A DNA stretch of 64,000 nucleotides, taken from positions 64,001-128,000 of IMG/VR virus record IMGVR_UViG_3300017700_000931. One strand, written 5' to 3'. Made by a program: the position numbers and the translations under genes. Origin of the DNA: a virus (Duplodnaviria > Caudoviricetes). Below are positions 1 to 3,588 of this stretch, piece by piece (the first letter of the stretch is position 1; each line of letters opens with the position of its first letter). Under the pieces are notes generated by a model, which was not told the origin of the DNA, made no database searches, and saw only the letters and a list, made by a program, of their open reading frames with translations.

Positions 1-220
1 CTTCATGGGCACCTTTTCCCCATTTATACCATCCAAAAATGTTTGCAATGAAGAAAATTATCTGCAAAATTGCTTGTAAATAAATTTTTTCATTAAAATA
101 AATGACGAAAAAGAGAATTATTGCAACAATTCCGAAAAACCAACACCAAATATTTTGTTTTGCTGTCAAATAAACACAAATCAATGTGAAAATCATTGCA
201 GATATCTCCAAAAATTTCAT
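1..220 (-). CDS. pnuC: PnuC-family vitamin (nicotinamide riboside/thiamine) transporter, 5' part; runs off the window start
   Basis: Not in ORF track. ATG at 220 overlaps the TonB receptor stop. Translation MKFLEISAMIFTLICVYLTAKQNIWCWFFGIVAIILFFVIYFNEKIYLQAILQIIFFIANIFGWYKWG has the PnuC pattern (xNIWxW..G, Q...GWYxW). Confidence 0.85.
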   Translation of the reverse strand, partial: MKFLEISAMIFTLICVYLTAKQNIWCWFFGIVAIILFFVIYFNEKIYLQAILQIIFFIANIFGWYKWGKGAHE

Positions 221-2193
221 TATAAAGACATTTTGATTGTGATATAACCACTTAATGGTGCATTTACATAGAAATACCTAAGATTATCTACAACATACCC
301 ATTAGTATAGTACCGTACACTGGTAATATTGTTAACCCTACCACTAATAGTATAGTCTTTATAGGTATACCCTATACTACCCCCATATATGATAAAAGAG
401 GGGGTGGTGTAATTATTACTAAAATCTAAATACGAACTACTATGGTATTTGGCTGTAAAGGCTAAATTAAATGGTCCATACTTATAATTCAATTCAGCAT
501 TGCTAACTACCGGAGGTGTATACAATGGTTGGAATTTCATTCCATTATCGTTTATTCGATTATAAGATAGGTTCGTATTATTATTCAGGGTCAATCTACC
601 ATTTTCATTATCCAATAAAATAATTGATGTCTCGATTTCAATTCCACTTCTAAATGATTTATCAACATTCATCATTAATGGTAAACCGTTAGAGCCTAAA
701 GCACCTATCAGGGTTATTTCATTTTTGAAATCCATGAAGTATAGATTACTTTTAAATTTGAATCTTTCACTCAAATAACTAAAACCAACCTCATAATCCG
801 TAACCATTTCTGGATTTACTGCTGAATATGAAATTAGATTATCTTCGCCCATGAACATATCATTACGAGTAGGTTCTCGGTGAGATACTCCAACTGAAGC
901 ATATGCTCTAAAATGTCTACAATAATTAAATACTACACCAGCTTTAGGATTAAAGAATAACCAATTTAAGTCCGGCATGACTACATCACCATTATATTCA
1001 AATGTAACATATCTTAATTGGGCATCCCCGAACAATGTGTACTTTCCGATGTCATAACCACCTTTCATGAATCCACTCAATTCATTCTTAAAACCTTTAT
1101 TAGTGTATAACCTATTTTCAACGTGAGGTAAAAGAGCCATACCATGTTCTCTATTGTACATATTACCATGGATTCCAATATTAGCATTTAATTTATCACC
1201 AGAATATTTGTAGTTGGACATCAGGCCATAAAAATTAGAGGCTAATTGGTAATTCAAAACATCGGTACCAGCACCTAATGGATTTAAATCCAAATCCCAC
1301 TCACCATCAAGACGATTATAATAAATTGTTGTATTAATTAATGATTTATTACCCAATCTTTGAGTATGTTGTACTTGAATAAAATTTTGAATGAAATTAT
1401 CATCCTCAACTGGTGTGTTATAATTAGTTCTTGGGTCTGCATTAATATCCAATTCGGAAACTGCATTCCAAGACATTTGATTTAATGACCGACCAGTGAA
1501 TCCTGAAAATTTGATTACACTATTTTTTAAATGGTAACCACCGCTCATGAAGAACGAATAACCCTTACTTCCAGAATTATATTTGTAACCATCAGTATCA
1601 AATGTAGAAAAATTAGTATAGATTGCTAACCCTTTATCATTAATCCCAGTGCTGTGCGAAACATTAAATCGTTTTGTATTAAAAGAGCCATAACCTAATT
1701 CTACTTCGGTGAATTCTTTCACACCACTTGGACTCTCAAAATTGATTGAACCAGCATAAGAGGAAACACCATTCGTAGATGTTCCAACACCACGTTGAAT
1801 TTGCATTGATTGAATATTATTTGAAAATCCGGGGTAGTTAGAGAAATAAACACCTTGGTCTTCTGGTTCATTAAGGGGAACACCATTAAGTGTCATATTA
1901 ATTCTAGTTTGGTCAATCCCTCTAATTCTAAAATAAGTATAACCTTGTGGATGACCACCATCCGTTGATGATGTGATTGAAGGGGTTTTATCCAAAACTT
2001 GTGAAACTTCTTCACCTTGATATCCGGTTTTAATATCATCTCGACCAAGTGTTGTTTCAGTGACTGGAGTTTTGTTATCAGCTCTAACGCCAGTAACACT
2101 TACACCCTCAAGTGTAATCATCTTAGTTGTATCTTCCTGAGCATGAACAAAAACAAGACTCAACAGAGTAATACAAAATAATAATTGTTTCAT
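220..2193 (-). CDS. TonB-dependent outer-membrane receptor (thiamine/vitamin type)
   Basis: Signal peptide, plug motifs (IRGIDQTRINMTLNGVPLN, IQIQRG..S..G...AGSIN), beta-barrel pattern, C-terminal NNIT..RYY..GY; directly upstream of pnuC. Confidence 0.9.
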   Translation of the reverse strand: MKQLLFCITLLSLVFVHAQEDTTKMITLEGVSVTGVRADNKTPVTETTLGRDDIKTGYQGEEVSQVLDKTPSITSSTDGGHPQGYTYFRIRGIDQTRINMTLNGVPLNEPEDQGVYFSNYPGFSNNIQSMQIQRGVGTSTNGVSSYAGSINFESPSGVKEFTEVELGYGSFNTKRFNVSHSTGINDKGLAIYTNFSTFDTDGYKYNSGSKGYSFFMSGGYHLKNSVIKFSGFTGRSLNQMSWNAVSELDINADPRTNYNTPVEDDNFIQNFIQVQHTQRLGNKSLINTTIYYNRLDGEWDLDLNPLGAGTDVLNYQLASNFYGLMSNYKYSGDKLNANIGIHGNMYNREHGMALLPHVENRLYTNKGFKNELSGFMKGGYDIGKYTLFGDAQLRYVTFEYNGDVVMPDLNWLFFNPKAGVVFNYCRHFRAYASVGVSHREPTRNDMFMGEDNLISYSAVNPEMVTDYEVGFSYLSERFKFKSNLYFMDFKNEITLIGALGSNGLPLMMNVDKSFRSGIEIETSIILLDNENGRLTLNNNTNLSYNRINDNGMKFQPLYTPPVVSNAELNYKYGPFNLAFTAKYHSSSYLDFSNNYTTPSFIIYGGSIGYTYKDYTISGRVNNITSVRYYTNGYVVDNLRYFYVNAPLSGYITIKMSL

Positions 2194-2256: not shown

Positions 2257-2280
2257 AAATGGAACCCTAGGGTTCCATTT
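2257..2280. terminator. Intrinsic terminator hairpin
   Basis: Perfect palindrome AAATGGAACCCT/AGGGTTCCATTT flanked by an A tract, at the end of ORF 2284-2688. Confidence 0.7.
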
Positions 2281-2283
2281 GAT

Positions 2284-2688
2284 TTATTTCTTAGGTTCTA
2301 AACCAAGAAGGTGTATTACTATTTCACCAATTGTTTTTCCATCATTAAGGTCTTTATAAACCTTATCCATTCTTATTCGCATTTCTTTGAAATTAGGAAT
2401 AGATGTTGTTTTAACTTCTGATGAAAATAATTTATCAGATAAAACCTTTTTAGCATTATTCCCATGGTGTTCAACATAGTGATTGATATTACCTGAGAAT
2501 ACTGTTGTATCTTTACCATTAGATACAATACTAATAAAATAATCTTCACCATTTACATTATAGGTGAAAACCTTTTGAAAGTAATTGTTGTCAGTGATAA
2601 ATAAATGCTTAGCTGTTTGTTTAAGATAAGCAATAATATTTGATTTAATTTGTACCTTTTTTTCTTGTGCGTTTTCAATTGTTTCCAT
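2284..2688 (-). CDS. Hypothetical protein
   Basis: 134-aa ORF on the dominant coding strand; no recognised motif. Confidence 0.75.
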   Translation of the reverse strand: METIENAQEKKVQIKSNIIAYLKQTAKHLFITDNNYFQKVFTYNVNGEDYFISIVSNGKDTTVFSGNINHYVEHHGNNAKKVLSDKLFSSEVKTTSIPNFKEMRIRMDKVYKDLNDGKTIGEIVIHLLGLEPKK

Positions 2689-2770
2689 TTGTTTTGTTTT
2701 TTTAATTAAACTTTATTACTTTTGGGACAATCCGAACCATATTCGTTCATCCATTCTTACTCGAAGAATT

Positions 2771-2797
2771 TTAAGGTGGCTTTACTTTCTATTTCAT
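2771..2797 (-). other. Minigene ATG AAA TAG AAA GTA AAG CCA CCT TAA (MK*KVKPP*)
   Basis: Read directly from sequence, 20 nt downstream of tRNA-Cys with an A/T-rich leader (TATAAATT-ATG); translation is inferred only. Confidence 0.45.
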
Positions 2798-2817
2798 AAT
2801 TTATAACATTTATGTTG

Positions 2818-2888
2818 AGGTAGGGGGCAGAATCGAACTACCATATCACGACTTGCGGTCGTGCACTTAACCAATCAGTCACCCCACC
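2818..2888 (-). tRNA. tRNA-Cys(GCA)
   Basis: Acceptor GGTGGGG/CCCTACC, T-loop GTTCGATT, anticodon arm CACGA-CCGCAAG-TCGTG, discriminator U73 (Cys identity); CCA not encoded. Confidence 0.85.
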
Positions 2889-2893
2889 TTTTA

Positions 2894-3154
2894 TTACCAA
2901 ATATTGGCTATAATTTCAGTATTTATTATTTCAATTTTTAATTTGGCTCTAAATTTAATACTACCCTTGGTGTGTGGATTTTCTGGTGTTTCTTTAGTAG
3001 AGAATCCAACTCCGGGAGACACATCAATATGATTAACATAATGCGTCAGACCCATATGTTTAATCACCCACATTGGTATCGTATTATCTTCGAGATTTTT
3101 CTTATTAAAGTGAAAAATTATTTCTCGTCTTTTTGTGTCATCAATGATTAACAT
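2894..3154 (-). CDS. Hypothetical protein
   Basis: 86-aa ORF whose start overlaps the Pth2-like stop (coupled). Confidence 0.7.
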   Translation of the reverse strand: MLIIDDTKRREIIFHFNKKNLEDNTIPMWVIKHMGLTHYVNHIDVSPGVGFSTKETPENPHTKGSIKFRAKLKIEIINTEIIANIW

Positions 3155-3501
3155 GATAATACCCCTTTCCCCATTAATGGTAATGAACTAGTTAATTTAC
3201 GACTAGCCTCAGATGGGGCCAATGCAATTGCTGTTAATTCATTATTGATATCCGGTTCCCTAAATGGTGTTATCTTAATATAACGTTCAGCTGCTTTTAG
3301 AATGAATTGTTTTAACTCATCTTCATTAGCTACGGTTAGGAAAATTAAATAATTGGAATTTGTGTGCCAGTCTTTGGCCTCCGTTGGATGTCCATGTTGG
3401 AAATCGATTGCAGCATGAGCTGCTTGTACTGCTTGATAAGCAAGTGGTAAATCACGTCTAGTGATGACAATTAATTTGTTATTTTCAATCTAATTTTTCA
3501 T
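3148..3501 (-). CDS. Peptidyl-tRNA hydrolase PTH2-family protein with an in-frame TAG at codon 4
   Basis: Not in ORF track. MKN*IENNKLIVITRRDLPLAYQAVQAAHAAIDF...WHTNSNYLIFLTVANEDEL...FREPDINNELTAIALAP fits the PTH2 pattern (K.V.V.R.DL, Q.AHA, V..E.EL, T.LA..P). TAG at 3490-3492. Confidence 0.82.
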
Positions 3502-3522: not shown

Positions 3523-3588
3523 TGCTCTTGGAGAGAATCGAACTCTCTGACACGGGTTTTAGAGGCCACCGTCACATCCTACAAGAAC
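3523..3588 (-). tRNA. Non-canonical 66-nt tRNA-like RNA with a putative CUA (amber) anticodon
   Basis: Acceptor GTTCTTG/CAAGAGC, perfect T arm GAGAG-TTCGATT-CTCTC, loop CTCTAAA; D arm reduced or absent and anticodon stem bulged. Confidence 0.65.

Follow-up and report, generated by a model that had tools for sequence, protein, structure and literature searches.

What is the role of a nine-codon frame, interrupted by an amber stop at its third codon, that stands between a tRNA gene and a small gene of a large phage? The frame lies in a window of 64,000 nucleotides that covers bases 64001-128000 of one contig of 362,532 bp (an IMG/VR virus record). This contig has 32.7% G+C and 57 tRNA genes, none of them called as a suppressor tRNA by ARAGORN.

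The micro-ORF and its surroundings

The nine codons described in the initial annotation are present exactly, on the minus strand at 2797..2771. They consist of ATG (2797-2795), AAA (2794-2792), the inner stop TAG (2791-2789), which we call the gate, AAA GTA AAG (2788-2780), CCA CCT (2779-2774) and the final stop TAA (2773-2771), and read Met-Lys-UAG-Lys-Val-Lys-Pro-Pro-UAA. We assign this frame as a leader micro-ORF from its sequence, its alignment with relatives and the statistics of the family described below. The ATG stands 19 nt behind the end of a tRNA-Cys (GCA) gene (2817..2888, minus strand; found by ARAGORN, Rfam 48.2 bits), and in relatives a tRNA precedes the leader often, not always. 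A second tiny frame, ATG TTA TAA (2801-2809, minus strand), ends 3 nt ahead of the leader ATG. Relatives lack this frame, which probably arose by chance in AT-rich DNA.

Behind the micro-ORF stop, a gap of 82 nt (2689..2770, minus strand) containing two local hairpins and then an open A-rich stretch leads up to the start of a 134-aa gene (2284..2688, minus strand). By alignment this gene belongs to a family, here called family A, that is the usual one behind the leader. A terminator-like hairpin of 10 bp, GC-containing and flanked by T and A runs on both sides (2257..2280), closes the unit 3′ of the 134-aa gene. Directly downstream of the unit we observed a phage-encoded TonB-dependent receptor with Plug and beta-barrel domains (220-2193, minus strand).

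Upstream of the leader lies a Pth2-like gene (3148..3501, minus strand; Pfam PF01981, E 7.9e-7, a match obtained with TAG translated as a residue). As previously reported for this DNA, it opens with ATG AAA AAT TAG (3501..3490), which places a TAG at codon 4 (3492-3490) and makes it the second early-amber frame of the module. It is preceded by a 66-nt tRNA-like gene (3523..3588, minus strand) with the loop CUCUAAA, and hence the anticodon CUA, that combines a good acceptor stem and T arm with a shrunken D arm and scores 23.7 bits, below the Rfam tRNA threshold of 29 bits. Relatives carry ordinary tRNA-CUA genes in the equivalent position, and we presume that the window's tRNA-like gene is the reader of both UAG gates, in the leader and in pth2. 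An RF1-like gene, a tmRNA and ClpP are also found upstream on the same strand, within 7 kb. Shine-Dalgarno (SD) sequences are nearly absent from the genes of this genome, as in Bacteroidota phages; the missing SD before the micro-ORF ATG is therefore uninformative.

Chance level and genetic code

The frame could in principle be a chance run in an AT-rich spacer, or a non-coding motif such as a promoter or a tRNA trailer that happens to resemble an ORF. Counted over the 362,532-bp genome, ATG-AAA-stop is found 64 times where about 54 would be expected; for ATGAAATAG the count is 12 and the expectation about 10. The bare ATG-AAA-stop pattern is at chance frequency, and a weak sigma-70-like match overlaps the micro-ORF, both of which would suit such an origin. 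The whole frame in its setting is above chance, with exactly one copy of the complete leader design in the window's genome. Moreover, the in-frame conservation, the length changes in threes, the third-position variation and the SD of SD-using relatives, all described below, leave a chance or non-coding origin with next to no credibility. The reading of the conserved block as a two-box promoter was ruled out by the variable spacing between gate and final stop.

We also asked whether the amber codon is reassigned throughout this genome. Early TAG codons ahead of long open frames are in no excess over early TAA or TGA, and the long ORFs are the same whether TAG is taken as a stop or as Gln. Both results indicate that the window's genome uses the standard code, and they rule out genome-wide recoding of TAG. 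The stops of 248 long minus-strand ORFs are TAA in 193, TGA in 30 and TAG in 25.

A conserved family of stop-gated leaders

A search of IMG/VR based on pth2 found 59 related loci, and the leader frame is present in 45 of them, at an identity to the window's pth2 of at most 69%. Searching with the downstream gene recovered the leader in 13 of 15 loci, bringing the count to 19 of 21 among all distinct family-A loci. A pattern search for the leader only, across 2.9 million viral contigs, returned 15 places, every one of them (15/15) in an equivalent setting. Finally, a metagenome search for leaders ending in Lys-Pro-Pro-stop (the KPP type) gave 32 matches, 8 of which are clearly of the leader kind with an SD before the ATG; a tRNA-CUA is nearby in 6 of these 8. 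The initial annotation had named a lack of conservation as the sign of a chance triplet, and the recurrence of the frame in related phages removes that objection. For neither the leader nor the 134-aa protein of the window did our searches return a close relative.

In total the family comprises 34 distinct DNA versions encoding 28 peptides of the form M-X-stop-[I/V/T]...[R/K]-x-P-[P/T]-stop. With the inner stop written as a slash and a final stop closing each frame, they include MM/ILRAPP, MK/IIRGPT, MR/IARAPT, MM/IARPPN and MN/IKAPP, as well as MK/IRKKPP, MK/IIKVPP, MS/VKPP and ML/VKKPP. The KPP-stop subclass is represented by loci L007, L015, L023, L034, L051 and L056 in addition to the metagenome loci.

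The window frame aligns codon for codon with the other members. Family gates open with ATG, one to three codons, a stop and then a purine, as does the window's ATG AAA TAG A; the [R/K]-x-P-[P/T] core lies within 4-13 codons past the gate, next to the final stop or close to it, as does the window's K-V-K-P-P-TAA. The position also conforms, since family leaders follow tRNA-CUA and pth2 and stand 40-130 nt ahead of a small gene. The order tRNA-CUA, pth2, (small ORF, tRNA-Cys), micro-ORF, family-A gene is shared by the window, L003, L018, L019 and others. On these sequence comparisons we consider the membership of the window frame in the stop-gated leader family secure. A literature search returned no paper on natural stop-gated leaders.

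The codons past the gate evolve as coding sequence

All 34 DNA versions share the ATG and an inner stop, and a purine follows the gate in each (A in 29, G in 5); codon 2, in contrast, is free to vary, with AAA, ATG, AGA, AAT, AAG, ACT, TCG, CTG and ACG found in relatives. The distance from gate to final stop ranges from 4 to 13 codons and is a multiple of three nucleotides in every case; the leaders of L055 and L023, for example, differ by one codon. Among the 21 ten-codon versions the Pro codon has a fixed CC and takes all four bases at its third position, and RGPT is written as AGA/AGG GGA/GGT CCN ACN. Over the family, synonymous and non-synonymous codon differences number 367 and 536 in the leader frame, compared with 63 and 776, and 24 and 765, in the other two frames. 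This corresponds to a synonymous share of differing codon pairs of 41% in the leader frame versus 8% and 3% in the others. Relatives that use SD sequences place AGGAGG or GAGG 6-8 nt ahead of the leader ATG.

Judged by this pattern of substitution, the leader frame is translated. Because the codons past the UAG appear to be under selection at the amino-acid level, the UAG would be read through and is not the end of the gene. The codon after the gate is ATT, ATA, GTA, GTT, ACT, ACA or AAA, most of which are not start codons, and a restart at that codon was accordingly ruled out. With the only start of the frame ahead of the inner stop and a codon behind it that is usually no start, the inner stop must be decoded. 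Read-through of the UAG is likely for the window's leader too.

The gate follows the anticodon of the suppressor tRNA

Of the gates in the family, 33 are TAG accompanied by a tRNA-CUA and one is TAA accompanied by a tRNA-UUA. A suppressor tRNA lies within about 5 kb in 43 of the 45 leader loci found through pth2, the remaining two being truncated loci. The ochre module, at L058, has changed as a whole: its tRNA carries the anticodon UUA (L058:4297-4371), its pth2 opens with ATG ACG TAA GTA (L058:2489-2500), with a TAA gate as codon 3, and its leader runs from ATG ACG TAA to CCA CCG TAG (L058:3683-3709), so that the gate is TAA and the end TAG. This match between anticodon and gate is the strongest single result of our study. 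The way the inner stop tracks the suppressor anticodon points to a leader that senses read-through by the suppressor tRNA, and not Pth2 or tmRNA.

An early gate in pth2 was also observed in a cultured phage of the Bacteroidota. In the Tenacibaculum phage pT24 (L090; NC_049383.1, 191128-197436), pth2 starts ATG AAA TAG ATA and an annotated tRNA-Sup (CUA) lies 2.6 kb upstream of it; the record annotates a different, later-starting CDS across the pth2 match. No PP-type leader was seen in the 6.3 kb of pT24 examined. This phage offers a tractable system for the amber gate.

These data bear directly on the initial annotation, which had proposed that an AUG-AAA-stop minigene traps tRNA-Lys. In that scheme, drop-off of dipeptidyl-tRNA from a two-codon minigene would feed or sense Pth2 while Pro-Pro-stop would draw tmRNA, making the frame a substrate of the rescue machinery. 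Formally the frame is indeed a two-codon ORF if no read-through takes place, a Pth2-like gene adjoins it in 45 of the 59 loci, and tmRNA, ClpP and the RF1-like gene are within 7 kb. Drop-off itself is established (PMC2490762), as is the tagging of proteins with C-terminal proline (Hayes et al. 2002, as reported in PMC12856214). However, with a variable codon 2 the frame does not single out any one tRNA, selection on the amino acids encoded past the UAG would serve no purpose in a two-codon minigene, the gate codon tracks the suppressor anticodon, and most relatives link the leader end to the start region of the next gene. The trapping of tRNA-Lys is contradicted by the first three of these observations, and we consider a rescue-machinery substrate unlikely. 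What survives of the earlier sensor idea is a conserved element within the Pth2 and suppressor-tRNA cluster; the evidence favours read-through as the quantity sensed. The Pro-Pro-stop end singled out earlier is a conserved feature as well, in line with the known slow termination after proline.

The leader end pairs with the next start region in most relatives

We folded the duplex at each locus against shuffled sequences, counting a stem at -7 kcal/mol or better. Of 35 distinct leaders, 28 are predicted to form a duplex between the stop codon with the following 10-17 nt and a segment ending 0-13 nt ahead of the ATG of the next gene. These duplexes span -7 to -17 kcal/mol with shuffle z-scores of -3 to -7, and most stem positions show several pair types, indicating covariation. 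RNAalifold, given whole leaders aligned with MAFFT, found no structure, the 3′ strands being misaligned in that input. In SD-using relatives the stem partner is the SD of the next gene, and in the metagenome KPP-stop leaders an anti-SD pairs with the SD of the next gene.

We then modelled a ribosome footprint at two positions, the UAG gate and the leader end. A ribosome at the UAG is predicted to leave the next start region closed as in free RNA. A ribosome at the leader end is predicted to raise the mean unpaired probability of the start region from 0.16-0.6 to 0.6-0.97. Thus, in relatives, opening of the start region is predicted solely for a ribosome that has arrived at the leader end.

The spacers of some relatives show additional features. 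A 7-8-nt motif occurs twice in direct orientation, 12 nt apart, in L003 (3227-3276), L019 (3238-3266), L088 (12331-12359) and the spacer of L076, and it recurs as an inverted copy 10 nt further on (TTGGACA/TGTCCAA or ATAGACA/TGTCTAT) inside the loop of the long stem. Such motifs are clustered in the leader only, and the window has none. They might serve as a binding site for a protein, or fold into a hairpin with a decoy copy. In L064 an HNH-type ORF is located within the leader spacer (L064:27-654), between the micro-ORF and the family-A gene, and the 3′ stem strand is still found ahead of the family-A gene.

The conservation of the amino acids would also be expected if the nine-residue read-through peptide were itself the product, a small effector or signal instead of a leader acting in cis, and the window copy indeed has no cis stem. 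Nevertheless, in most relatives the stop region is part of a stem that also takes in the start of the next gene, the conserved residues coincide with known ribosome-stalling cores, and the peptide has no export signal. We therefore hold a peptide product to be very improbable.

What the window copy keeps and what it lacks

Retained in the window copy are the start codon ATG, the second codon that is commonest in the family, the TAG with its following purine, Lys-Pro-Pro and the TAA. Its Lys directly after the gate is found in no other family member, and the Arg is missing from its core (KVKPP). Arg loss alone does not amount to decay, since many KPP-stop leaders have good anti-SD stems.

In the window the stop region does not pair with the start region, the best duplexes between them reaching -2.5 and -0.5 kcal/mol (z +1.2). 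The fold of the whole leader is no better than that of shuffled sequences (z-score +0.40), and the accessibility of the start region is flat across the three modelled states (0.67/0.70/0.67). One nucleotide past the stop begins a local 6-bp hairpin at 2769..2753 (AUUCUU-CGAGU-AAGAAU); a second hairpin follows at 2752..2725, and the last 36 nt ahead of the 134-aa ATG are open. No hairpin with a U-run was found in the window spacer (2770..2689), the only terminator-like site being the one at 2280..2257.

These features would fit a vestigial copy, that is, a homologue of the family that has lost the Arg core and the stem, is now functionless and is kept by chance or recent descent. The absent pairing, the unchanged accessibility, the missing Arg and the unmatched Lys after the gate all agree with decay, and the other VKPP copy, that of L051 (MS/VKPP), is also stemless. 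On the other hand, nine codons have stayed intact while their neighbours diverged (21-32% identity for family A, at most 69% for pth2), and the ATG, the TAG, the following purine, Lys-Pro-Pro and the TAA all fit the family. Furthermore, KPP-stop leaders form a widespread, working-looking subclass, and VKPP recurs in L051, a distant phage. Decay strikes us as possible and rather doubtful.

The window copy is either a weak version of the leader or one that is differently wired. The earlier suggestion that the frame regulates the 134-aa gene consequently stands in part: the leader does precede that gene family and, going by the modelled structures, control is plausible in relatives, but for the stemless window copy it is at most a conjecture.

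The gene behind the leader

Among 1.8 billion proteins, family A accounts for 240 cluster representatives, and its members have diverged to 21-32% identity between the window and relatives. The AlphaFold2 model of the 134-aa protein is confident (pLDDT 87). The protein matched no Pfam or PHROG family and, by Foldseek, no structure in the PDB; BFVD gave one match, an uncharacterised marine-phage protein, the best VIA-align Z was 4.8, and Atlas returned hypothetical proteins only.

Some leaders stand ahead of other small genes. A second small family of about 100 aa, whose members start MKxNPTTxIKxKFSNEVHK, replaces family A behind RGPT-type leaders (L075:5685-5999, L086, L017:4080-4391 and L014:3422-3715). 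A third, basic family is found behind KPP-type leaders in the metagenome loci L101, L117 and L123.

A proposed read-through switch

We propose, with a probability of roughly 0.55, that the frame is the window phage's copy of a conserved stop-gated leader micro-ORF that works as a read-through switch. Under this hypothesis, ribosomes would initiate at the AUG and meet the UAG as codon 3. Where the release factor wins, the ribosome would leave after a dipeptide. Where the phage CUA tRNA (3588..3523) decodes the UAG, the ribosome would translate five more codons up to Lys-Pro-Pro-UAA, and slow formation of the Pro-Pro bond, or slow release after proline, would hold it at the leader end. In relatives, a ribosome parked there would open the pairing between stop region and start region and so turn the next gene on. 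The next gene, like pth2, would then be made only during active read-through.

Homology, in-frame translation, the match of gate and anticodon and the covarying stem of relatives lend this proposal their support at the sequence level; from them we infer read-through itself, pausing and gene activation. Several points weigh against a switch. The window copy has no stem and no Arg, a residue irreplaceable in the RAPP peptides tested (PMC12992588), and the Lys behind its gate is unmatched in the family. The window's CUA tRNA scores below the Rfam threshold, and the window copy has no close relative on which constraint could be tested. Nascent chains of 8-9 residues are also far shorter than the arrest peptides studied.

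More speculatively, we suggest that in large phages with the standard code the competition between suppressor tRNA and release factor at leader codon 3 gates the 134-aa family, in parallel to the amber-gated Pth2, and that the stemless VKPP form works in another way and has not decayed. This wider proposal is tentative and on balance improbable. The stemless form could act by loading ribosome-rescue factors or through the hairpin directly behind the stop.

Many large phages with the standard code carry a suppressor tRNA whose use is unexplained. If the switch is real, the leader would give the suppressor tRNA a defined job, as the input of a gene switch, and engineered amber-leader switches would gain their first counterpart in nature. 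RAPP-type arrest would also be extended to chains of 8-10 residues and to a new trigger, read-through instead of protein export. The product of the 134-aa family would then be wanted only under altered reading of stop codons, making this family a good target for the discovery of function. The window copy has a lower value in this respect, being stripped-down and mainly of use as a natural variant with no stem.

Comparison with known systems

The genome resembles those of stop-codon-recoded phages (bioRxiv 10.1101/2021.08.26.457843) in its phage suppressor tRNA, low GC and preference for TAA stops. It differs in that the window's genome reads the standard code, with UAG limited to a handful of gates, each as codon 3 or 4. 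Leaders or uORFs are not mentioned in that study.

Lambda bar minigenes and C-terminal proline pausing with SsrA tagging share with the leader a two-codon ORF, unless it is read through, and a Pro-Pro abutting the stop. Unlike the bar minigenes, the leader has an unconserved codon 2, and its sequence past the inner stop appears to be selected as protein. It differs from attenuators of the trpL/tnaC type, which carry alternative terminator and antiterminator hairpins or a rut site directly behind the leader, in that the window spacer holds no hairpin with a U-run.

The closest likeness is to the RAPP-like arrest peptides ApdA, ApdP, ApcA, SecM and the RQH family (PMC7897499, PMC10987492, PMC10951233, PMC12992588). 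These carry a short C-terminal R-[A/G]-P-[P/G/T] core near the stop, and the relatives' leaders end in RAPP, RGPT, RAPT or IIRAPP; RAPT and RGPT variants are listed among ApcA-like uORFs (PMC10987492, PMC12992588, PMC10951233). Both are encoded just ahead of the gene that is regulated, or presumably regulated, where a stalled ribosome opens, or in the phages is predicted to open, a helix hiding the next start. Arg at the first core position is irreplaceable in ApcA, ApdA, ApdP and SecM, and the second position takes a small residue, Ala or Gly, and partly Ser, Asp or Pro (PMC12992588). The window's KVKPP has no Arg, has Lys in place of Ala/Gly and has no masking helix. It does present Pro for the P site with Pro as the incoming residue, CCA CCT standing directly before the TAA; in the arrest peptides the incoming residue is Pro, Gly or Thr. 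In contrast to the known peptides, the phage leaders have 8-15 codons and no signal or membrane segment, leaving nothing by which to pull them out of arrest, and their core is reachable only past an in-frame stop codon. The predicted geometry in relatives is that of the SecM, MifM and ErmC-type switches, with the added condition that the ribosome must pass a stop codon first.

Such a condition has been built by design. In engineered leader switches, a UAG inserted into a tna or trp leader makes expression of the downstream gene dependent on a suppressor tRNA (Liu et al. 2011, as described in PMC6412442). As proposed for the phage leaders, translation of the leader past the UAG turns on the downstream gene. 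The engineered switches are man-made and act on Rho-dependent transcription termination, whereas the phage leaders are natural and phage-borne and, in relatives, would act on the start region of the next gene.
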